Below, piece after piece: positions 6,937-64,000 of a DNA stretch of 64,000 nt. The stretch is from Minisyncoccota bacterium (GTDB lineage Bacteria > Patescibacteriota > Minisyncoccia > UBA6257 > 2-01-FULL-56-20). The position numbers were made by a program, and so were the translations under genes. The stretch lies in contig DATKNL010000012.1 of NCBI GenBank assembly GCA_035541435.1, positions 70,498-134,497 of the forward strand. The letters run 5' to 3'. The stretch's first letter is position 1. Each line of letters opens with the position of its first letter. Below the pieces are notes generated by a model. The model saw only the letters and a list, made by a program, of their open reading frames with translations, searched no databases and had not been told where the DNA came from.

Positions 6937-9510
6937 TTAGCGCATCGCGAGCAGTTTGCGCAAATACTGCCCGGTGAAGCTGCCCGCCTTGCGGGCGACC
7001 TGCTCGGGCGTGCCGACCGCGACGATCTGGCCGCCGCGCTCGCCGCCTTCGGGGCCGAGGTCGATGATCCAGTCCGCGGTCTTGATCACGTCGAGGTTGT
7101 GCTCGATCACGACGATCGTGTTCCCGCGGTCGACCAGGCGCTGCATCACCTTGATGAGCTGGTCGACGTCGGCGAAATGCAGCCCGGTCGTCGGCTCGTC
7201 GAGCAGATAAAGCGTGCGGCGCGTGTCGCGCTTGCCGAGCTCCGCGCCAAGCTTGATGCGCTGCGCCTCGCCACCCGAGAGCGTCGTTGCGGACTGGCCG
7301 AGCTCGAGATAGCCCAGGCCGACCTCTTCGAGGATCGCAAGCTTCTCGTGGAGCCAGGGGATGTCGCCGAAGAACTTCACCGACTCCTCGATCGTCATCT
7401 TCAGGATGTCATAGATGCTCTTTCCTTTATATTCCACCTCGAGGGTCTCGCGGTCGAACCGCCGGCCCTTGCAGACGTCGCAGGTCACATAGACGGTCGG
7501 CAGGAAGTGCATCTCGATCGCGATCGTGCCGTGGCCCTCGCAGTTCTCGCAGCGGCCGCCCGGGACGTTGAAGCTGAACCGTCCCGGCTTGTAGCCGCGC
7601 ACCCGCGCGTCCTCGGTCGAGGCGAAGAGGTCGCGGATGTGGGTCCAGGCGCCGACATAGGTCGCCGGGTTCGACCGCGGCGTGCGGCCGATCGCGGACT
7701 GGTCGATGTTGATGATACGGTTGATGTATTCGAGTCCCAGGATCTGCTGATAGCCGCCGGCCTTGTGGTTCGCGCGGTTCAGCTTGTCGGCGACCGCCTT
7801 ATAGAGGACGTCATACACGAGGCTCGACTTGCCCGAGCCCGAGACGCCCGTCACGGCCGTGAGCCGGCGCAGCGGAATGTCGACGTCGAGGCCCTTGAGG
7901 TTGTTGGCATGCGCGCCGCGGATCTTCAGGAACTCCTGCGAGCTCCCCTTCTTCTCGCCGTCCTTCGCCGACGGCAGGCGCACGGCGCGCCGCTCGGACG
8001 GGACCTCGATGAACTGCTTGCCCCGCAGGTACTGCAGCGTGAGCGAGTTCTGCTTCGCATCCTTCAGGATCTCGGGCATGGGGCCCTTCGCGACGACGCG
8101 GCCGCCGTGCACCCCGGCCGCCGGGCCGATGTCGACGAGATAGTCCGCCGCGCGGATCGTGTCCTCGTCGTGCTCGACGACGACGATCGTGTTGCCGAGG
8201 TCGCGCAGGTCCTGCAGGGTCCTGATGAGCTTCGCGTTGTCGCGCTGATGGAGGCCGATCGTCGGCTCGTCGAGGATGTAGAGCGTGCCGACCAGGCGCG
8301 AGCCGATCTGCGACGCGAGCCTGATGCGCTGAGCCTCGCCGCCCGAGAGCGTTCCCGCCTTGCGGTCGAGGGTCAGATAGTCGAGCCCCACGTCCATCAT
8401 GAACCTGAGCCGCGACGTGATCTCGCGGAGCGGGGCTTCGGCGACCTCGGTCATCGATTCGCTCCTGAACTTCATGGCGCCGAAGAATGCGAAGGCGTTC
8501 TCGATCGACAGGCCGACGACCGAATTGATGTTCTTGCCGTCGATCAGCACGTTGAGGCTCTCGACGCGCAGGCGCTTGCCTTCGCAGACCGGGCAGATCT
8601 CGTCGGACCACAGGTCCTTCGTGCCGAGGCCGTGGCATTCGGGACAGGCGCCATAGGGACTGTTGAACGAGAACAGGCGCGGCTCGATCTCGGGGAACGA
8701 GAAGCCGTCGTGCGGACAGGTGAACTTCGCCGAGAGCGATACCTCCTTGTCGGCGATGATCGTCGCGACGTCGTTGCCATATTTGAGCGCGTGCTCGATC
8801 GCCTCGGCGAGGCGCAGGCGGTTGTCCTTGTCCTTGAAATCCATGCTCGACGGGATGCGGTCGATGACGAGGTCGATGTCGTGCGTCTTGTAGCGCGACA
8901 GCTCGACCCGCTCGCGGAGCGAGTGATATTTGCCGTCGATGCGGACTTCGGAAAATCCGGCGTTCAGGAAGTCATAGAGCATCTGGTAATATTCGCCTTT
9001 CCGGCCGCGGACGACCGGCGCAAGGATCACGAGGTTGCTGCCGGCCTTCCCTTTCGCGCCGCCCTGGCTCTGCCGCGCGAAGTCGATCGCGACGTCGACG
9101 ATCTCTTCGTTCGTGAGCTTCTTGATCTCGCGGCCGCAGGTCGGGCAATACGGCTTGCCGGCGCGGGCGAACAGCACGCGCAGATAGTCGTAGATCTCGG
9201 TGATCGTCGCGACGGTCGAGCGGGGGTTCGAGGAATGGCTCTTCTGGTCGATCGAGATCGCGGGCGAGAGGCCCTCGATGTCGTCGACGTCCGGCTTGTC
9301 GAGGCGGCCCAAAAACTGCCGCGCATAGGCGGAGAGCGACTCGATGTAGCGGCGCTGGCCCTCGGCGAAGATCGTGTCGAACGCGAGCGACGACTTGCCC
9401 GACCCCGAAAGGCCGGTGAAGACGACCATCTTGTCGCGCGGGATCTCGAGGCTCACGTCCTTAAGGTTGTGCTCGCGGGCGCCTTTGATGATGATTTTGT
9501 CGTGGGGCAT
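6937..9510 (-). CDS. uvrA: Excinuclease ABC subunit A
   Basis: 857 aa; two ABC ATPase modules ([32 protein letters not shown] x2), zinc modules CPTCG / CPECHGLG / CPVCEGKR, UvrB-binding region [14 protein letters not shown]. Confidence 0.9.
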
Positions 9511-9639: not shown

Positions 9640-11424
9640 CTACCGCGCGAATGCCCGGGCGCCCTCAAGCACCTCCCCTTCCCCGTTGCCGCTCTGCTCG
9701 CGCCACAGCGCCGAATAGAGCCCGTCGGGATTCCGCAGCAGCTCGGCGTGCGCGCCGCGCTCGATGATCGATCCCTTCTGCAGCACGAAGATCGTATCGG
9801 CGTGCGCGATCGTCGAGAGCCGGTGCGCGATCATGACCGTGATGAGGTCGGGGCGCGACCGGGCGATCTCCTTGATCGTGTCGGTGATGGACCGCTCGGT
9901 GATCGAGTCGAGGCTCGAGGTCGCCTCGTCGAAGATGATGAGGTCGGGCCTGCGCAGGAGCGCCCGCGCGATCGCGAGGCGCTGGCGCTCGCCGCCCGAG
10001 ATCTTGATGCCGCCCTCGCCGATCTTCGTGTCGAGCCCCTTGCCGCCGCGCTCGGCGATGCCCACGACCGAGGCGTTCCGGAGCGCCTCCCAGCAGTCCT
10101 CGTCGGTCGCCGCAGGGTTGACGAACAGCAGGTTCTCGCGGAGCGTCCCCGCGAACAGCTGGGTCTCCTGCGAGACATAGCCGATCGTGCCGCGCAGGGC
10201 GTCGAAGTCGATGCGGCGGCTGTCGGTCCCGTTGATCGTGATGGACCCGCCCGTCGGATGATAGAGGCCCACGAGCAGCTTCACGAGCGTCGTCTTGCCC
10301 GATCCTGAATAGCCGGCAAACGCGACCGTCTCACCGCTCCGGATGGTGAACGAGGCGCCGTTCACCGCGGGGGCGTTGTTGCCGTCATAGCCGAACGAGA
10401 CGTTCTCGAACTCGATGGCCTTCAGGCTTCCGAGCCTCACCGCATCGGCCGGCTTCTCTTCGGGCGCGATATTCAGGATCTCCTCAAGCTTCTCAAGGCT
10501 GCCGCGCGCCTCCTGATATTGCGCCGCCACCGTACCGATGTCGCCGAGCGGCGAGAAGATATAGAAGGAATAGAACCAGAGGCTCAGGAACTCGCCGAGC
10601 GAGACGCGCCCGAGCACGATGAGCCAAAGCATGGCGAACAGGATCGCCGAGCGCATCGCGTTCACGATCGTCCCCTGCGTGAAGCTCAGCTTGCGGATCA
10701 GCTTGAGCTTCGAAAGCTCGAGGCCGAGCACCTTCGTGTTCACCTCGTTGAGCCGCTTCGTCTCCTGCTCCTCGAGGCCGAGGCTCTTCACGAGCTCGAC
10801 GTTCCTGATCGTCTCGGTCGTCGATCCGGCAAGGTTCGCCGATTCGACCACGATGTTCTTCTGCACCGCCTTGATGCGGCGTCCCAAAAAGAACATGGTC
10901 GTTCCGACGATCGGAATGATGAGGAAATAAAGGAGGCCGATAAGCCAATGCACGAAGAACGCATAGACGAGCACGAACAGGATGCCGACGCACGAGACGA
11001 ACACGATGTCGACGAAGCTCAGGATGAGCTGCTGCGCGTCGAGGCGCGCCTTCTGGAGCTTCTGCAGCAGCTCGCCGGACCGCTGGTCCTCGAACACCGA
11101 ATACGGAAGCGAAAAGGAGTGCGACACGCTGTGGGCATAGAGCTCGGTGCCGACGCGCTGGGTCACGACGTTCTCATAATATTGCTGGAAGTTCTTGGCG
11201 ATGCGCGAAACGAGCGCCGCGCCCACCGAAGCGAGCAGCAGGATCCCCACCCCGCGCAGGAAGTCGGCATGCGAAATCGACCCGACCTTCGAGACGTAAT
11301 CGTCAATGATGAGGCGGAAGATCTGAGGATCGAGCAGCGAAAACAGCTGGTTCACCGAAGCGAGGACCAGCGTCAGGCCAAGATATTTCTTATAGCGTCT
11401 TAGATAGTTCCACAATAATTGCAT
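9640..11424 (-). CDS. ABC transporter permease/ATP-binding fusion protein (MsbA-like exporter)
   Basis: 594 aa; six N-terminal TM helices then NBD with GYSGSGKTT Walker A, ISGGERQRLAIARAL signature, IIFDEATSSLD Walker B. Confidence 0.8.
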   Translation of the reverse strand: MQLLWNYLRRYKKYLGLTLVLASVNQLFSLLDPQIFRLIIDDYVSKVGSISHADFLRGVGILLLASVGAALVSRIAKNFQQYYENVVTQRVGTELYAHSVSHSFSLPYSVFEDQRSGELLQKLQKARLDAQQLILSFVDIVFVSCVGILFVLVYAFFVHWLIGLLYFLIIPIVGTTMFFLGRRIKAVQKNIVVESANLAGSTTETIRNVELVKSLGLEEQETKRLNEVNTKVLGLELSKLKLIRKLSFTQGTIVNAMRSAILFAMLWLIVLGRVSLGEFLSLWFYSFYIFSPLGDIGTVAAQYQEARGSLEKLEEILNIAPEEKPADAVRLGSLKAIEFENVSFGYDGNNAPAVNGASFTIRSGETVAFAGYSGSGKTTLVKLLVGLYHPTGGSITINGTDSRRIDFDALRGTIGYVSQETQLFAGTLRENLLFVNPAATDEDCWEALRNASVVGIAERGGKGLDTKIGEGGIKISGGERQRLAIARALLRRPDLIIFDEATSSLDSITERSITDTIKEIARSRPDLITVMIAHRLSTIAHADTIFVLQKGSIIERGAHAELLRNPDGLYSALWREQSGNGEGEVLEGARAFAR

Positions 11425-11803: not shown

Positions 11804-13860
11804 GCCGCAGGCGCCTTTTCGGCCGCCGCAGCGTCCTTGCGCGCCTCCTTCTCGAACTCCCGCGCCTTCACGGCAAGCTCTTTGATCTCGTCGCGCAGGA
11901 TGGCCGCAAGCTCGAAATCGAGCGCCTTCGCCGCATCGCGCATCTCGCGCTGCTTGTCGGCGATGAGCCTCGCGAGCGCCGTCCTGGATTTCGGCACGGG
12001 CCGCGTCTCGAGCTTCAGGATCTCGTCGACGTCGGGCAGGATGTCCGAGATCTTCTTGATGATCGTCGTCGGCGTGATGCCGTGCTCGGCGTTATAGGCG
12101 AGCTGCAGGGTCCGGCGGCGATCGGTCTCCTTCGCCGCGCGCTCGATCGATCCCGTCACCTGGTCGGCATACATGAGCACTTCGCCCTGCGCGTTGCGTG
12201 CCGCGCGGCCGATCGTCTGGATGAGCGACACCTCGCTGCGCAGGAACCCCTCCTTGTCGGCATCGAGGATCGCGACGAGCGACACCTCGGGAAGGTCGAG
12301 CCCTTCGCGCAGCAGGTTCACGCCCACGAGCACGTCGACCTTCCCCTTGCGGAGGTCGGTCAGGATCCTGATGCGGTCGAGCGTCTTCACGTCGCTGTGC
12401 AGATAGGTCACCTTCACCTTCTTCTCCTCGAGGTACGAGGCGAGGTCCTCGGCCATGCGCTTCGTGAGCGTCGTCACGAGCACGCGCTCCCTCTTCGCAA
12501 CGCGCTCCTCGATGCGCGGGATGAGGTCCTCGACCTGTCCGCGCGCCGGCTTGATCGTGATCCGCGGATCGACGAGCCCCGTCGGGCGGATGATCTGCTC
12601 GACGGTCTGCCCGCCGTGCGCCGGATCGCTTTCCTCGCGCTCATAGGGGCCCGGCGTCGCCGACGTGTAGATCACCTGGCCGATGCGCGCCTCGAACTCC
12701 TCGAACCGCAGGGGCCGGTTGTCGATGGCGGACGGCAGGCGGAACCCGTACTCGACGAGCGTCTTCTTGCGCGCGGCATCGCCGTTGTACATGCCCTGGA
12801 GCTGCGGCACCGTCATGTGCGACTCGTCGATGACCGTCAGGAATTCGGGACGGCCCTTCTCGTCGTGCGGGAAATAGTCGAGGAGCGTCGCCGGCGGCTC
12901 GCCCGCGGCCCGTCCCGAAAGGTGCCGCGAATAGTTCTCGATGCCGTGGCAGTACCCGACCTCGCGCATCATGGCGATGTCGAACTTCGTGCGGCGCTCG
13001 AGCCGCTCCGCCTCGAGGAACTTCTTCTCTTTGTCGAACTTCGCGAGCTGCTCCTTGAGCTCGGCCTGGATAGCGACGATCGCCCGCTCGCGCTCCGGGG
13101 CCTCGGTGATGAAGTGCTTCGCCGGCGCGAACGTGATGTCGGGGATCTTCGGCGTCTTGCCGGGCCTGAACCCGACGACGGGATCCACCTCATAGATCTC
13201 CCGGATCACCCCGCCCAGGACCTCGATCGTATACACGATCTCGCGGTCCGCGGGCATGATCTCCCAATTCTCTCCGCGCAGGCGGTACGTGCCGCGCTTG
13301 AGGTCGGCGTTCGTGCGGTTGAACTGCAGCTCGACGAGCCGGCGCGAGAACTCCTTGCGTTCGATGCGGTCCCCGACCTTGAAGTGGAAGATGTTCTGCC
13401 GATAGACATCGGGGGCGCCGAGGCCATAGATGCACGACACCGACGCGACGATGATCACGTCGCGCCGCGTGAGGAGCGCCGTCGTCGCCGCGTGGCGCAG
13501 CTTGTCGATCTCGTCGTTGATGAGCGCCTCTTTGTCGATATAGGTGTCGCTCGACGGGATGTAGGCTTCGGGCTGGTAATAGTCGTAATACGAGACGAAA
13601 TAGTTCACCGAGTTGTTCGGGAACAGTTCGCGGAACTCGTTGCAGAGCTGCGCGGCGAGCGTCTTGTTGTGCGCGATGACGAGCGTCGGCCTCTGCACGC
13701 CCGCGATCACGTTCGCAATGGTGAAGGTCTTGCCCGAGCCCGTGACGCCGAGCAGCGTCTGCGCGGGCATGCCCCGCTCGACGCCTTTCGCGAGCGCCGC
13801 GATCGCCTTGGGCTGATCGCCCGCCGGCTTATTGGATGAGATGATTTCGAATTTTGACAT
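11797..13860 (-). CDS. uvrB: Excinuclease ABC subunit B
   Basis: 687 aa; helicase motifs GVTGSGKTF, DESH, UvrB beta-hairpin region and C-terminal UVR domain (LRDEIKELAVKA). Confidence 0.9.
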   Translation of the reverse strand: MSKFEIISSNKPAGDQPKAIAALAKGVERGMPAQTLLGVTGSGKTFTIANVIAGVQRPTLVIAHNKTLAAQLCNEFRELFPNNSVNYFVSYYDYYQPEAYIPSSDTYIDKEALINDEIDKLRHAATTALLTRRDVIIVASVSCIYGLGAPDVYRQNIFHFKVGDRIERKEFSRRLVELQFNRTNADLKRGTYRLRGENWEIMPADREIVYTIEVLGGVIREIYEVDPVVGFRPGKTPKIPDITFAPAKHFITEAPERERAIVAIQAELKEQLAKFDKEKKFLEAERLERRTKFDIAMMREVGYCHGIENYSRHLSGRAAGEPPATLLDYFPHDEKGRPEFLTVIDESHMTVPQLQGMYNGDAARKKTLVEYGFRLPSAIDNRPLRFEEFEARIGQVIYTSATPGPYEREESDPAHGGQTVEQIIRPTGLVDPRITIKPARGQVEDLIPRIEERVAKRERVLVTTLTKRMAEDLASYLEEKKVKVTYLHSDVKTLDRIRILTDLRKGKVDVLVGVNLLREGLDLPEVSLVAILDADKEGFLRSEVSLIQTIGRAARNAQGEVLMYADQVTGSIERAAKETDRRRTLQLAYNAEHGITPTTIIKKISDILPDVDEILKLETRPVPKSRTALARLIADKQREMRDAAKALDFELAAILRDEIKELAVKAREFEKEARKDAAAAEKAPAAK

Positions 13861-14085
13861 GATGGTTGGCGTGGAAGATCGCAGGAAGGCCCCGAGGGCC
13901 TTGCCCTAAGGGGTATCGTTTCCTTCTCTTTCAGCCACTATTATACCGCAAATCGCGACAAAAGAAAAACCGCTTTCCGACCTCACCGGAAAACGGCCTT
14001 TCTCGTAATTACTTACAAGATTCATTATAGCACGCCCGAAGCGGACGGGTGTGGATAGAATCTGGATTCCAAAAACGCCCGATTT

Positions 14086-55485: not shown

Positions 55486-55544
55486 GTTGTTGTTAAAGGT
55501 AAAATCCGCTGCTTCGACCTTTTATTACATTATAGCAAACAGCC

Positions 55545-55574
55545 TTGCCGTCCCCTGCGGGTCGCTGGTATAGT
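55545..55574 (+). promoter_or_regulatory. Promoter TTGCCG-N18-TATAGT upstream of the membrane-anchored wHTH-like gene
   Basis: Read directly; AAGGAGG SD 6 nt before GTG. Confidence 0.4.
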
Positions 55575-55604
55575 GCAAATAGGACGTTTACAAGGAGGTT
55601 TCAC

Positions 55605-55919
55605 GTGTTCGCTACCCTGTTCTGGACGTTCATTGCCATATTGTCCGTCGTCATGCTCTTCGCCGGGCTCTCTTATAAGAACCAGCAGGCACAGCGCAAG
55701 ATCCTGAAGACGCTGCGCGACTCGGCCGACGAAGGCGAGTGGCTTACGGCAACGGACATCAGCGCCAAAACCAGTCTCGAACCCACCTTTGTTTTTGGGG
55801 TTTTATCCGACCTCGAAAACAAGGGCGAGATCCGAGGAGAGGAATCCGTACCGATACCGGATCGCCGCTTCACCATCAGGAAATTTCCGCTCAGAGCCTC
55901 CCGCTCCTGTGCTTCATAA
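55605..55919 (+). CDS. Small membrane-anchored protein with winged-helix-like C-terminal domain (GTG start)
   Basis: VFATLFWTFIAILSVVMLFAGL TM then LKTLRDSADEGEWLTATDISAKTSLEPTFVFGVLSDLENKGEI; strong SD AAGGAGG. Confidence 0.5.
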   Translation: MFATLFWTFIAILSVVMLFAGLSYKNQQAQRKILKTLRDSADEGEWLTATDISAKTSLEPTFVFGVLSDLENKGEIRGEESVPIPDRRFTIRKFPLRASRSCAS

Positions 55920-55955
55920 GCGCAGCGCGGGCGGCGGACCCTTCTCTTCTATAAC

Positions 55956-55983
55956 CGCTCGCACCCCGCGCGCGGTTTTTTTC
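55956..55983 (+). terminator. Rho-independent terminator CCGCTCGC-ACCCC-GCGCGCGG + T7
   Basis: Read directly. Confidence 0.55.
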
Positions 55984-56008
55984 GTCATCAAATCGATCGT
56001 GCAACGCA

Positions 56009-56036
56009 TTGACATCTTTCGGCCGTTTTCTAGAGT
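56009..56036 (+). promoter_or_regulatory. Cassette-1 promoter TTGACA-N16-TAGAGT (homologous to cassette-2 promoter)
   Basis: gcattgacatctttcggccgttttctagagt vs gcattgacatccatagtcggttttctagaat. Confidence 0.55.
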
Positions 56037-56058
56037 GAAGGGAGCGTGGAGGATATTT

Positions 56059-56199
56059 ATGGATGCTTGGCTTGCGGAAGTTCTTCAGGAAGCCCACGAA
56101 GAAGTGGAAAAATGGCCTTCGTGGCGTAGAGATCCAGAATTCGCGAATGAGCGAACGCCCGAGCTAAATTCCAGCGAACTGGAACGAGTCGCCAACTAA
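56059..56199 (+). CDS. Micro-ORF 1 (46 aa, acidic): MDAWLAEVLQEAHEEVEKWPSWRRDPEFANERTPELNSSELERVAN
   Basis: GGAGG SD 6 nt upstream, own promoter and terminator; below the ORF-track length cutoff. Confidence 0.4.
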   Translation: MDAWLAEVLQEAHEEVEKWPSWRRDPEFANERTPELNSSELERVAN

Positions 56200-56203
56200 C
56201 CAA

Positions 56204-56245
56204 CCCCTCTGAGGATTGAATCCGCGGAGGGGCTTTTCTTTTTTG
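56204..56245 (+). terminator. Terminator T1 CCCCTCTG...CGCGGAGGGG + CTTTTCTTTTTT (homologous to T2)
   Basis: Read directly. Confidence 0.55.
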
Positions 56246-56390
56246 AAAGCAGCTGAGCCTTGTTAAAAAATCGTCGTGTGGACCATCTAAGCGGATGGAT
56301 CGAACGTGGGAAGCGCTGATATGATTGCTTCTCAAAGCAAACGTTTGTTACGAGTGAAGGATTGCGCTGAGGTAGTCCCGCCGCATGGAA

Positions 56391-56414
56391 AACCCCACCG
56401 TATCAGGTGGGGTT
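56391..56414. terminator. Hairpin AACCCCACC-N6-GGTGGGGTT overlapping stop codon of HTH gene
   Basis: Read directly; weak U-tracts on both strands. Confidence 0.35.
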
Positions 56415-56696
56415 TGTTTTGGGCCGTTTCTTGGTTTCTACGTTTCTTGCGAGGAACCGCTCCGCGGTCTCGGCCGTAAAATCGATCTCGAGAGTCGCGG
56501 AGATTGCCCGGTGGACCTCCTTCGCGTTGAACAGGGTCTTGCCGTTCGGGGCGGTCAGGGGCTTGAGTTCTGCGAGCGGTGGGGGCCACGGCGATTCGCC
56601 GGCGACCCATCTCTGCAGCGTGCGCAGGCAGACGCCGAGCAGTGCCGCCGTCTCCTCGCAGGAATAGAACGCGAGGTCGTCGCCGTATTTCAGCAT
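56403..56696 (-). CDS. Excisionase/AlpA/MerR-type HTH (HTH_17-like) DNA-binding protein
   Basis: 97 aa; YSCEETAALLGVCLRTLQRWVAGE matches excisionase-family HTH. Confidence 0.6.
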   Translation of the reverse strand: MLKYGDDLAFYSCEETAALLGVCLRTLQRWVAGESPWPPPLAELKPLTAPNGKTLFNAKEVHRAISATLEIDFTAETAERFLARNVETKKRPKTNPT

Positions 56697-56766
56697 GGGA
56701 TTCCTTTGGTGGAGGGCTGGCTAGACTATATGGCGCGAAACGATATGTGTCCAGGCTGCGGGTGCA

Positions 56767-56794
56767 TTGACATCCATAGTCGGTTTTCTAGAAT
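56767..56794 (+). promoter_or_regulatory. Cassette-2 promoter TTGACA-N16-TAGAAT; -10 overlaps palindrome TTCTAGAA
   Basis: Read directly. Confidence 0.55.
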
Positions 56795-56816
56795 AAGTAA
56801 AGCATAAGGGGGACAA

Positions 56817-56993
56817 ATGCGAACTACGCTTATCGCGTTTCGAACCATAAAGCGTCTGCCGAAGCCGTCGATGGAAGGCAATTCTGTTTATACGCTTGGC
56901 AAGAAAAAGCCCAGCAGCGAGTTGACGCCTCTCGACGTTCCGCCGGGAATGGACCCGGACGATTTCGCCCTCGATTCATGAGTGCGAGTTAGT
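56817..56993 (+). CDS. Micro-ORF 2 (58 aa, basic): MRTTLIAFRTIKRLPKPSMEGNSVYTLGKKKPSSELTPLDVPAGNGPGRFRPRFMSAS
   Basis: AAGGGGG SD 4 nt upstream; own promoter and terminator; weak SSEL similarity to micro-ORF 1. Confidence 0.35.
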
Positions 56994-57004
56994 GCATTCC
57001 TAAC

Positions 57005-57043
57005 CCTCTGCAGGCAAAATCTGCGGAGGGATTTTCTTTTTTA
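57005..57043 (+). terminator. Terminator T2 CCCTCTGCAG-N7-CTGCGGAGGG + ATTTTCTTTTTT
   Basis: Read directly. Confidence 0.55.
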
Positions 57044-57054
57044 AGCTTCGGTTG

Positions 57055-57090
57055 AAAAAATTCCCTGCATAGAGTTCTATGCAGGGAATG
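57055..57090 (-). terminator. Terminator: 14-bp perfect inverted repeat ATTCCCTGCATAGA / TCTATGCAGGGAAT with U6 on minus strand
   Basis: Read directly; convergent with T2. Confidence 0.55.
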
Positions 57091-57093
57091 GTC

Positions 57094-57834
57094 CTATCGG
57101 GCAAAAACCCAAGGGGTTTTACTGCGGATAGAGTTAAGTTCGCCGAGGAAACAAGCCCCAAGAGATGGCTGCCCCCTCTGATGGTTGAGTACGAGAATCA
57201 CCGACCTGGGCCGCCGATAGATCTTGATTGGGCTCATCCCGACATAAACGTACGATGCGGTGCCCGCGTTGAGCGTGGGCTGTTCGGGGTATTGGAGTCT
57301 CAGGAAGGGCACCACCTCGGCCGGGACCGGCTTCAGGCCGTGCGCCGCCGCGGCTTCGTGGACCGTCTTGCCGTTCGTGTACTCCTTCGTAATGCCGAGC
57401 TCGGCCGGGAAAGCGAGCACGCACTCCGCGCTCATTGGACGGTCGAAGCTGAGCGTCGCGAGCGCATGTCTGGCCCGTCCATAGACGAGGAAGCCTTGAG
57501 CCAGGAGTTCGGCGACGAGCTCCTCGCCGGAGCCGCGCACCTGCGTGCGCACCGTCTTCCAGACCGGAAACGGCGGCCGCTGCGGATCAACCGCCACGGG
57601 GATCCAACACGGCTCTCTGCGGAGGAATTTCTCGAATTCTCCTCCCCAGGCCTCGGCATCGTCTCCCAGCAGGTTGGTCACGAGTTGCTTGAACGCCCCG
57701 TCGAAGCGGCAAAGCGTCTCACCGATCACGCTTTTCATGGTCAGCGCTACCTTTCTGCCGGGGACTACGATCCGTAGCCGCAGCCGCAAAACTCCGATGG
57801 GGGCTTTGTGGCTGCGGCCAGAACCCGCTGGCAA
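57094..57834 (-). CDS. Hypothetical protein (214-246 aa depending on start)
   Basis: Track ORF; driven by consensus promoter at 57898-57926; no family recognised. Confidence 0.5.
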   Translation of the reverse strand: MPAGSGRSHKAPIGVLRLRLRIVVPGRKVALTMKSVIGETLCRFDGAFKQLVTNLLGDDAEAWGGEFEKFLRREPCWIPVAVDPQRPPFPVWKTVRTQVRGSGEELVAELLAQGFLVYGRARHALATLSFDRPMSAECVLAFPAELGITKEYTNGKTVHEAAAAHGLKPVPAEVVPFLRLQYPEQPTLNAGTASYVYVGMSPIKIYRRPRSVILVLNHQRGQPSLGACFLGELNSIRSKTPWVFAR

Positions 57835-57897
57835 CCTAGAGCGCTCGCCTCGAACGACTTATTTGTAGGGAAAATAAACCAACGATGAACTGTGCAA

Positions 57898-57926
57898 ATT
57901 ATATCGCATAACGATATATTTGTCAA
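57898..57926 (-). promoter_or_regulatory. Perfect-consensus sigma70 promoter TTGACA-N17-TATAAT
   Basis: Reverse complement reads ttgacaaatatatcgttatgcgatataat. Confidence 0.55.
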
Positions 57927-58001
57927 ATAACTTTCGGCTGGACGTCGGACTGGCCGCAGTCTGCGCGGTCGTGTTTTGATTTATGGTTCGATTTCCGCCG
58001 G

Positions 58002-58072
58002 TGGACCCAGGGAGAATCGGACTCCCGCCTCCGCAATGCGAATGCGGCGTAATACCACTTTACTATGGGCCC
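58002..58072 (-). tRNA. tRNA-Ala (anticodon CGC), slightly atypical T-loop (C at position 55)
   Basis: Reverse complement: acceptor GGGCCCA/TGGGTCC with G3:U70, D-arm GTAA-AGTGGTA-TTAC, anticodon stem CCGCA/TGCGG loop TTCGCAT, T-arm GGGAG-TCCGATT-CTCCC. Confidence 0.55.
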
Positions 58073-58081
58073 GAGTGAGGC

Positions 58082-58219
58082 AAAAATGAATGGTTCTTAA
58101 CTATTCATTTTTGACGAGCGAGGGCACAGGCGGCGAAGCCGCCGGGGCCCGAAGAACAAACAACACATTATCTTCCACGAGCGAGGGCACAGGCGGCGAA
58201 GCCGCCGGGGCCCGAAGAA
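58082..58219. repeat. AT-rich hairpin (AAAAATGAAT-N11-ATTCATTTTT) followed by two identical 43-bp direct repeats (acgagcgagggcacaggcggcgaagccgccggggcccgaagaa) spaced by 20 bp, each forming a GC hairpin
   Basis: Units at ~58114-58156 and ~58177-58219 are identical base for base. Confidence 0.7.
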
Positions 58220-58256
58220 ACAATAGCACCCAACCGGCGCTCTTTCAACATCAGAA

Positions 58257-62879: not shown

Positions 62880-62939
62880 TCAATTGTAATCCTTTCGCGC
62901 GTTGAATTAAATGAGCGTTTGTTTTAGGATAGGGCTGAA

Positions 62940-63012
62940 GCCCCTATAGCTCAGCTGGTAGAGCAGCTCCCTTTTAAGGAGACGGTCCCAGGTTCGAGTC
63001 CTGGTGGGGGCA
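62940..63012 (+). tRNA. tRNA-Lys (anticodon TTT)
   Basis: Acceptor GCCCCTA/TGGGGGC, D-arm GCTC-AGCTGGTA-GAGC, anticodon loop CTTTTAA, T-arm CCAGG-TTCGAGT-CCTGG. Confidence 0.8.
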
Positions 63013-63066
63013 CACTGCCCGAAAAAGGTAGCCATCCATATTTGTTTTTCCTTCGCTGCCGGCGAT

Positions 63067-63106
63067 AAGGAGACGGTCCCAGGTTCGAGTCCTGGTGGGG
63101 GCACCA
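63067..63106 (+). repeat. Direct duplicate of the 3' half of tRNA-Lys (anticodon-loop AAGG to 3' end), here with encoded CCA; no matching 5' half
   Basis: aaggagacggtcccaggttcgagtcctggtgggggcac identical to 62976-63013; 54 bp downstream of the intact gene. Confidence 0.6.
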
Positions 63107-63213
63107 CAGGTTAGGAACAGGGCCCTGTTGCGTTCAGGCCTGGATTGCGCTATGGTTTTAGGCAGCAACATTTAAATAACAAGAGAGTGAGATGTTGCTA
63201 GAGGAGATTCAGC

Positions 63214-63855
63214 ATGGCGAGTCGAAGTACTGTAATGAGACCGGGGCGGTCTCATACGAGCATTTCCCACCTTCAACCTTCAACAACGTCATCGGCAGTA
63301 CCGGCCCCGAAGACGTATCCCTCCCGATACGAACGGCCCTTGTACGTCTTCGGATATGTACCCCTCGTTCCCCTCGTAAGCACTCCCGAAGTCAGGATCA
63401 TACGCTGCGGCGCCGCCAATGTCCTGCCGCTTCCTCAACGCGAGCATGGCGACCCGTACTATTACGACCGTTTTGCCTTCGAATCGAAAGGTCTCGAGCT
63501 CCCTCTCAACGAACAGTGGCAGCATCTGATCTTCTCGTGGTTCACCGAAGGTATCGACGCCATGTGCCGGCCCTATCAGGCCGAAGCGGATAGCGACGAC
63601 ATTCGTCTCCGGATTTTCACATCGCCCGTCATCTGCACGGATCGCGAAGAGGCAAAGCTCATCAAGCAGATGCAGGGACCAGAACGCCAGACCAGGCAGC
63701 AGGCGCATTGGAACGGATGCGAATACTGCCGAATCCTTCGCGACGCGCGCAAGGTCGGCGGCAACATCCAGCCGTTCCTGATCGACCCGGATGTCATAAC
63801 CCCGAAGCGCCTTTCGGACCTCCGTCTCCTCGGCAGCCCGCAAGGTACCGCCTAA
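63214..63855 (+). CDS. Hypothetical protein (213 aa), lower GC
   Basis: Track ORF with AGAGGAG SD; followed by GCGCCC...GGGCGC + TTTTATT terminator at ~63878-63912. Confidence 0.45.
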   Translation: MASRSTVMRPGRSHTSISHLQPSTTSSAVPAPKTYPSRYERPLYVFGYVPLVPLVSTPEVRIIRCGAANVLPLPQREHGDPYYYDRFAFESKGLELPLNEQWQHLIFSWFTEGIDAMCRPYQAEADSDDIRLRIFTSPVICTDREEAKLIKQMQGPERQTRQQAHWNGCEYCRILRDARKVGGNIQPFLIDPDVITPKRLSDLRLLGSPQGTA

Positions 63856-64000
63856 TGCAGTCACTCTCAAGCTCGCACCAGCTAGCGCCCAGCCCTACCA
63901 GGCCCCGGGCGCTTTTATTGTCTTCGGCCGCGCGCCGCCGCTCGTTGAAATTCAGCGGCGCTTCCCCTACAATAGTCGGGACAGTTCGGAGGGTTGGCAG

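Follow-up and report, generated by a model that had tools for sequence, protein, structure and literature searches.

An exact copy of the tRNA-Lys 3' half follows the tRNA-Lys gene

The DNA analysed here, hereafter the window, is a 64,000-nucleotide, 62% GC stretch of contig DATKNL010000012.1 from a metagenome-assembled genome (MAG) of Candidatus Paceibacterota, a member of the Candidate Phyla Radiation (CPR), obtained by short-read metagenome assembly. Near its right end lies a complete tRNA-Lys(UUU) gene, which both ARAGORN and Rfam report as the sole complete tRNA-Lys at the site. It is followed 52 nt later (63014-63065) by a second copy of its own 3' half and then by a 213-aa orphan open reading frame (ORF). 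A preliminary description of the sequence had taken this arrangement for the scar of a tyrosine-integrase element. Here we describe the tRNA-Lys gene and its displaced half-copy, and compare them with tRNA genes that are nested inside tRNA genes in other Paceibacteria.

The tRNA-Lys gene is 100% identical to that of another locus, L032 (loci fetched for comparison carry L numbers throughout), and is presumably functional. A likely promoter can be read from the letters upstream of it (Table 1); with 8/12 matches this candidate falls under the threshold of our promoter scan, and its layout is the same as that found before plain or outer tRNA-Lys genes of relatives. Upstream, on the opposite strand, lie the genes for a zinc-ribbon membrane protein, RNase HII, L32, NusB, RNase III and SMC. 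All six tRNA genes of the window (at 463, 32537, 32612, 33475, 58000 and 62940) have a C after the discriminator, and none encodes CCA.

A repeat search of the window returned an exact 39-nt direct repeat (62975-63013 = 63066-63104), which spans tRNA-Lys positions 36-73 together with the C after the discriminator; copy 2 lies 91 nt downstream of copy 1. By our estimate, the probability of an exact 39-mer repeat arising by chance in 64 kb is ~1e-19, which makes this explanation essentially impossible. The repeat had been recognized in the preliminary description, which put it at 38 nt with a gap of 54 bp; alignment of the two copies gives 39/39 identity. The same description had remarked that a terminal CCA is spelled only by the second copy, and the sequence confirms this, since copy 1 continues C-A-C and copy 2 C-C-A (63104-63106). 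We do not, however, regard the CCA as meaningful: the corresponding 3' halves in other loci, described below, are followed by CCT, CGG, CAA, CAG or GCG, and the CCA here is probably due to chance, estimated at about 1 in 16 given the shared C.

The preliminary description had also raised the possibilities that the second copy is a full tRNA gene, that it has an alternative 5' half, or that it stems from an assembly error. No tRNA was called by ARAGORN or by Rfam at E<=1 in 63020-63110, and none of the 14-mers of the tRNA-Lys 5' half recurs elsewhere in the 64-kb window. Given the absence of both a cloverleaf call and a copy of the 5' half in the window, copy 2 is not a second, tandem tRNA gene. 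An assembly artefact, that is, a chimeric join or a collapsed or expanded repeat, could be suspected in view of the short-read metagenome assembly behind the window and of the European Nucleotide Archive (ENA) contig of the region, which stops 253 nt past the window end. We consider such an artefact extremely unlikely, because the structure is common to two assemblies: the ENA contig (L001/L003) has both copies and differs from the window by 4 mismatches over 10.8 kb. In addition, homologous structures are present in two records titled whole chromosomes, OY970382.1 and OY970126.1. The Logan unitig L002 begins 30 nt inside copy 2, a start point that would be expected from a 39-nt repeat in a de Bruijn graph. 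Another Logan unitig, L004 (SRR8879131), ends at window position 62972/62973, which corresponds to tRNA position 33, directly before the wobble base; this suggests that the sample also contains a second tRNA-Lys (e.g., CUU) whose 5' part is identical.

tRNA-Lys genes are nested within tRNA-Lys genes in other Paceibacteria

We retrieved the neighbourhoods of RNase HII homologues in 80 species genomes, and tRNA-Lys was found nearby in 20. At four of these loci (L005, L006, L015 and L026, the record of the last being titled a whole chromosome), the tRNA-Lys gene has partial copies of itself on both sides. Upstream is a copy of positions 1-35 followed by about 65-75 nt; downstream are about 48-52 nt followed by a copy from position 36 on. 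We also scanned metagenomes with a pattern consisting of the inner 3' end, 30-60 nt, and the start of the 3' half, and of the 28 contigs that were returned, 18 have tRNA-Lys-related structures of the nested kind. Both outer halves and both intervening arms are present in 14 loci: the four genomes named above and the metagenome contigs L085, L088, L089, L090, L092, L097, L105, L106, L108 and L110. The order is outer 5' half, left arm, complete tRNA-Lys, right arm, outer 3' half. A block of ~190 nt, made up of a small hairpin (P2), the left arm, the complete tRNA-Lys and the right arm, interrupts a tRNA-Lys gene. In the main arm family, the break reads CCCTTT|...|TAAGGAG and falls between U35 and U36, with nothing duplicated or lost. 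A second arm family occupies the same site in L087, L096, L100 and L104, with the break at about the same place.

The outer halves vary in their state of preservation. Both are identical to the inner gene in L090, L092, L106 and L108, while the outer 5' half of L026/L015 (GAGAGCTGACTCCC) differs from the inner 5' half. Outer halves are truncated in L005, L006 and L098, the T stem is broken in L015, and secondary insertions are seen in L085, L110, L095 and L089. Moreover, T36 of the outer 3' half, an anticodon base, is mutated in L006, L085, L094, L098 and L088. The outer halves thus look unconstrained. Species-specific variants of the D-loop and T-loop are common to the inner and outer halves, a sign of concerted evolution.

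Not all loci carry the full unit. Right-only forms of the tRNA-Lys nest were found in L094, L098 and L087, a further decayed state with only a right-arm remnant in L035 and L130, and plain tRNA-Lys genes in equally close relatives (L007, L030, L032 and L127-129). A decay series from full units through right-only forms and arm remnants to the plain gene is visible across loci. At L097 (Ga0078972_1000113, 13100-13901), a multi-level array surrounds one full tRNA-Lys: on the left are two units of 5' half and left arm plus a degenerate third, and on the right at least 5 units of right arm and 3' half, which repeat with an 85-nt period to the end of the fetched DNA. These unequal unit numbers point to unequal crossing-over after nesting. 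Full-text literature searches turned up no account of one bacterial tRNA gene nested inside another, and the arrangement in CPR bacteria is apparently undescribed.

The two arms pair with each other across the inner tRNA

The left and right arms are mutually complementary and extend the acceptor stem of the central tRNA by a helix of about 35 bp, such that RNAfold returns a cloverleaf within a cloverleaf (helices P1 to P5 are given in Table 1). In nested units, the C after the discriminator and the base preceding the tRNA pair with each other within this helix. We analysed the pairing in 13 aligned units using RNAalifold and explicit pair counting. Of 64 pairs in the arms, 28 have compensatory changes, on both sides, and 95.1% of cells are paired; slid controls are about 45% paired, and 0/500 shuffles reach any of the five pairing measures. 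The energies of the arm duplexes, -55 kcal for L090 and -45 kcal for L026, compare with about -21 and -13 for shuffles.

Two features of this helix bear on its interpretation. In single-sequence folds, G-U pairs outnumber A-C mismatches 45 to 11, and this G-U excess is strand-specific. In addition, the core of the internal loop reads TTCGCT 5'-to-3' on both strands, and consequently forms a direct repeat inside inverted arms. A target-site duplication would be expected to look like this, as would attL/attR derived from two palindromic sites. Between the sister species L015 and L026, several double changes are seen in P4, with the flanks alike by eye; gene conversion between the arms of a palindrome would produce changes of this kind. 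A candidate promoter inside the left arm of the tRNA-Lys nests was unconvincing, unlike the clear one in the tRNA-Ala nests described below.

The spacer in the window matches the right arm

An nhmmer profile of the right arm was built from 13 other loci, with the window left out and the tRNA parts removed. It matches the window at 63014-63064 with E = 8.9e-7, and this is its sole significant match in 64 kb. The window spacer also aligns colinearly with the right arms of L090, L026, L006, L085, L110, L005 and L094. The segment CACTGCCC, which extends the acceptor stem in full units, is followed by a T-rich strand that departs from the consensus, and TTCGCTGCCGGCGA is kept. Copy 2 begins at T36, a boundary that it shares with the outer 3' halves of full nested units, and the junction reads GGCGA|TAAGGAG at 63065|63066 versus ...GGCGG|TAAGGAG in L090, L110 and others.

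The left side of the unit is absent from the window: there is no outer 5' half, no P2 hairpin and no left arm. A left-arm profile gave no match upstream of the window tRNA-Lys, and pairing of the 60 nt upstream of the tRNA with the right arm (-19.8 kcal) showed no excess complementarity relative to shuffles (-19.5 +/- 3.8). The window is accordingly a partial, right-only member of the nested tRNA-Lys family, like L094 and L098, and its tRNA-Lys is the counterpart of the inner tRNA in nested units.

Table 1. Features at the right end of the window and helices of the nested tRNA-Lys unit
Feature	Position	Strand	Description and basis
Likely tRNA-Lys promoter	62902-62930	+	TTGAAT (62902-07), 17 nt, TAGGAT (62925-30); 9 nt to tRNA start; sequence reading
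Complete tRNA-Lys(UUU)	62940-63012 (end 63012/13 by caller)	+	ARAGORN; Rfam tRNA, 67.8 bits, E = 4e-14
Right-arm relic	63013-63065	+	CACTGCCC, degenerate T-rich strand, then TTCGCTGCCGGCGA; nhmmer profile match and colinear alignment
Displaced outer 3' half of tRNA-Lys gene	63066-63106	+	Positions 36-73 and C, then CA, reading CCA; exact 39-nt repeat, starts at T36
213-aa orphan ORF	63214-63855	+	AGGAG Shine-Dalgarno sequence at 63202-06, 7 nt before ATG
tRNA-Ser promoter	63945-63973		Promoter scan
tRNA-Ser(CGA)	63988-64074		Runs past window end; seen in L001, which extends 253 nt beyond the window
P1			Outer anticodon stem
P2			Small hairpin at 5' junction; stem varies, top often AATARGAAT
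P3			7-8 bp, then internal loop
P4			AU-rich, about 17 bp
P5			Continuation of inner acceptor stem

tRNA-Ala nests and hairpin modules without a tRNA

Nesting is not confined to tRNA-Lys. A tRNA-Ala(CGC) is nested in L005, L006, L007, L032, L092 and L098, with outer pieces that comprise positions 1-18 and 27-73. Because about 7-8 nt of the outer gene are missing, the tRNA-Ala nest is not a spliceable intron. Its left arm contains a clear promoter for the inner gene (TTGAAA, 17 nt, TACTAT). A right-only nested tRNA-Ala is present in L132 (region 8146-8600, minus strand), where a large serine recombinase gene (Resolvase, Recombinase and Zn_ribbon_recom) adjoins it; no recombinase was seen next to any other of these structures.

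With R1, a covariance model that represents the arms but not the tRNA, we found tRNA-less modules at other sites. An antisense module consisting of P2, P3, core and P4 lies in the T-loop of an outer tRNA-Lys 3' half at L110 3310-3386 (71 bits) and at L085 102-178, and its presence there argues for events at the DNA level. Two R1 modules were found in L089, whose outer copy also has small GC-hairpin insertions in its D and T arms. R1 modules also occur in the tRNA-Ala(CGC) leader of L098, L024 and L035, and in that of the window (58069-58142).

The tRNA-Ala leader of the window lies on the minus strand at 58069-58256, upstream of the tRNA-Ala(CGC) gene at 58000-58072. Its Lys-arm-related module scores 28 bits with R1 (E about 1e-5 to 1e-4) and consists of TCGCTCG, an AU hairpin and CCTCACTC. 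Before the module are two 63-nt tandem units (GGGCCCC, a GC hairpin, TGTGCCC and TCGCTCG). A promoter (TTGAAA, 17 nt, TATTGT) is placed as if GGGCCCC were the 5' end of a tRNA.

Origin of the displaced half-copy

We consider it fairly likely that the spacer and the half-tRNA together are the right-hand remnant of a nested tRNA-Lys gene. An ancestor would have carried the full nest, a ~190-nt block between U35 and U36 of an older tRNA-Lys gene whose halves were left as the flanking outer fragments. The complete inner tRNA would have been the working gene, and the non-functional outer halves would have been kept similar to it mainly through gene conversion. The left side was probably lost by recombination between the duplicated 5' halves: a crossover between the 35-nt direct repeats formed by the outer and inner 5' halves would have deleted the outer 5' half and the left arm and put the original promoter directly before the surviving tRNA-Lys. 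This would leave behind the original promoter, one intact tRNA-Lys, the outer 3' half and, between the last two, a right arm that decays for want of its partner. For the origin of the nest itself, we favour the insertion of a small, enzyme-less hairpin cassette into the DNA stem-loops of a tRNA gene, or template-switch repair at such stem-loops. We conclude that the nests are DNA-level rearrangements or insertions with homogenised repeats, and probably not working introns. As for the earlier suggestion that the duplication is what remains after the loss of an element, it survives in the sense that copy 2 would be a displaced fragment of an insertion-split tRNA-Lys gene that has suffered partial loss; the integrase mechanism attached to it is not supported.

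Several points weigh against our account. The nearest relatives have about 65-70% RNase HII identity, with none closer in the databases, and it is from these that we infer the full ancestral nest. The right-only form might itself be primary, with no half-deletion behind it. Copies that agree at 39/39 positions beside a diverged arm require either ongoing gene conversion or a recent event. Our account does not explain the core of 5-7 nt, which is TTCGCTC on the left and TTCGCTG on the right, and the covariation of the arms could reflect RNA function instead of homogenisation at the DNA level. It is conceivable, if doubtful, that the nests represent an undescribed class of tiny, protein-less hairpin cassettes that home into tRNA-gene loops, or a true tRNA-hosting intron with an unidentified removal pathway; in either case, the window would hold a half-excised copy. 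Such a cassette would have as its targets the tRNA-Lys anticodon loop, the tRNA-Ala D-loop and a T-loop, and it would carry its own promoter and a replacement tRNA.

If the duplication were a classical attL/attR scar, as the preliminary description had it, the attP of a tyrosine-integrase element would have carried the tRNA-Lys 3' half, and almost all of the element would later have been deleted, leaving 52 nt of its ends. The anticodon loop is reportedly a common crossover site in K. Williams' survey of tRNA integration sites. Furthermore, islands are mapped by just this signature, an intact tRNA accompanied by a direct repeat of its part between the anticodon loop and the 3' end (PMC4383910). 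Nevertheless, we consider this origin unlikely. No recombinase or integrase Pfam family was found in any called gene between 53.2 and 64.25 kb, and only 52 nt lie between the copies, whereas Islander requires an integrase gene inside the bounded DNA (PMC4383910). In 14 other loci, the homologue of the spacer pairs with a partner across the tRNA and stands beside a duplicated 5' half, a part of the tRNA gene that integrase islands are not known to duplicate. A clean U35|U36 break without a shared overlap core marks the outer junctions, and the flanks of the inner tRNA are mutually complementary, which is unexpected of att arms. Exact scans of IMG/VR viral contigs for the two ends of the 52-nt spacer gave no match, nor did a scan for the attP that would be predicted (right strand of P4, core, left strand of P4). 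Fourteen viral matches to the left-arm motif were set aside as chance, being located inside a phage coding region with no tRNA nearby. The clean 35|36 outer junction presumably does not fit IS200/IS605-like ends, integron attC sites, Xer/dif-like sites, or the cores of serine or tyrosine recombinases either. Nor does the orphan ORF appear to be the delivered cargo, as had been proposed in the alternative: it is not enclosed by the pair of copies, it is not bounded by a third, and it has no homologue but itself.

A functional role at the RNA level would make the nested unit a tRNA-hosting bacterial tRNA intron, or a structured leader or trailer. The right arm and the CCA-bearing 3' half of the window would then still have a part in processing, perhaps that of a tRNA-like minihelix or a decoy. 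The strong covariation of the arms and the strand-specific G-U excess fit such a role, as does the clean insertion, in that joining of the exons would restore CTTTTAA in most full units and the insert ends in G in most units with the most intact-looking outer halves. Yet the outer halves decay freely, with T36 mutated in 5 loci, the tRNA-Ala nest lacks about 7-8 nt of its outer gene, one module is antisense, the arm in the window is without a partner, and the CCA is not conserved. Rfam 15, searched at permissive E-values with the window and the full L026 unit, returned only tRNA and noise, with no group I intron or ribozyme, and the double changes between L015 and L026 fit gene conversion in a palindrome. 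We therefore judge an RNA function to be quite unlikely. Independent local duplication is very unlikely; under it, replication slippage or template switching would have placed a copy of the 3' half 91 nt downstream in this genome alone, unrelated to the structures of other species. In its favour, the two repeats are exact, short and close together, tRNA genes readily form secondary structure, and the tRNA-Ala leader of the window also has tandem repeats. However, the profile match largely refutes this explanation, since the spacer is homologous to the right arms of distant relatives. The T36 boundary is also shared with other loci, and a tandem duplication would have repeated the spacer after copy 2, which is not the case. 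A retro-copy of a mature tRNA half, which the CCA might suggest, was rejected: the CCA lacks conservation, and the arm beside it is genomic sequence with homologues in other loci.

Relation to known systems

Tyrosine-integrase islands at tRNA genes are mapped by displaced tRNA fragments, which is the principle of Islander (PMC4383910). The arrangement studied here resembles them in that an intact tRNA gene is accompanied by a displaced direct repeat of its part between the anticodon loop and the 3' end, and in that the inserted DNA restores gene function. The full nested units differ by also duplicating the 5' half, by having a ~190-nt block without an integrase, by lacking an overlap core, and by the inverted repeats that flank the inner tRNA. 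In the tRNA-dependent lysogeny of mycobacteriophages, insertion disrupts the host tRNA-Lys(UUU) and the phage supplies its own tRNA-Lys (PMC10865867). Here too a tRNA-Lys(UUU) gene is disrupted without being rebuilt, and an inserted complete tRNA-Lys compensates. However, the phage system involves a whole prophage, an integrase and a ~10-bp common core, none of which is found in the nests, and the replacement tRNA of a nest sits inside the anticodon loop of the disrupted gene.

Archaeal tRNA introns lie mostly at 37/38 and have a bulge-helix-bulge motif that is spliced by EndA. Disrupted tRNA genes in archaea include intron-containing, split and permuted forms, and the Caldiarchaeum model attributes the disruption to mobile elements (PMC3293823, PMC4390854). 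The likeness consists of an interruption in or near the anticodon loop, tRNA fragments beside the gene, and a proposed mobile-element origin. The nests, in contrast, are bacterial and interrupted at 35/36, contain a whole tRNA in the insert, and have an outer copy that appears dead; by inspection, they have no bulge-helix-bulge-like arrangement.

Short hairpin modules without a protein are also known as miniature inverted-repeat transposable elements (MITEs), as REPINs (pairs of repetitive extragenic palindromes) and as rRNA intervening sequences, the last of which replace hairpin loops. They share with the nests the occurrence of strongly hairpin-forming modules at several sites and in either orientation, and the rRNA intervening sequences lie in the loops of structured RNA genes. 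The nests differ in that they have no shown link to a transposase or RAYT, are low in copy number (one module and one arm in 64 kb), and have a core that is a direct repeat inside inverted arms; furthermore, one lineage carries a complete tRNA gene.

If this comparative picture holds, the genes for tRNA-Lys and tRNA-Ala in a CPR branch are repeatedly rebuilt such that one gene encloses another, and partial and multi-level versions exist as well. For annotation, half-tRNAs beside tRNA genes in these genomes should then not be taken as island boundaries. The nests would also offer a bacterial counterpart to the disrupted tRNA genes of archaea, and a view of how an essential RNA gene is restructured in tiny genomes with few repair and mobile-element genes. 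Judged from its sequence, the feature in the window would by itself be a harmless, non-functional relic.

The orphan ORF and other features of the window

The orphan ORF sits between the relic and the tRNA-Ser(CGA) gene with its promoter (63945-64074), and it looks like a neighbour unrelated to the tRNA structure. No third copy of the tRNA-Lys 3' half was found to the right of it, up to the tRNA-Ser gene or the contig end. The ORF does have a Shine-Dalgarno sequence of its own and a GC content at third codon positions (0.68) lower than in neighbouring genes (0.77-0.90), both as first described. The terminator ascribed to it did not hold up: a terminator scan found no canonical one, and the sequence offers no more than a weak 7-bp stem that encloses a 16-nt loop, with TTTATT behind it, at 63884-63919. 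The protein has no Pfam or PHROG match and no similarity by tblastn in any fetched locus. Its only match in 5.8 billion proteins is itself, as the 171-aa NCBI model VMT99_04000, encoded on a 151-kb contig of the Candidatus Paceibacterota MAG.

In L001 (region 10775-11040), a strong terminator comes after the tRNA-Ser(CGA) gene. Within its final 130 nt, this ENA contig contains tRNA-like pieces, namely an acceptor (GCGGAGG...CCTCCGCA) and a T-loop, which are interrupted by hairpins; neither ARAGORN nor Rfam called a tRNA in them, and the contig breaks there.

Downstream of the 3' end of the window tRNA-Ala, the region 55500-58000 has patches of GC 0.50-0.57 and four small ORFs, three of them without families. 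A 97-aa HTH_17/excisionase-like protein is encoded at 56403-56696 (Pfam E = 1.5e-4, PHROG 66). Neither an integrase nor a tRNA-Ala fragment was found in 55500-58000, which may be a degraded islet.

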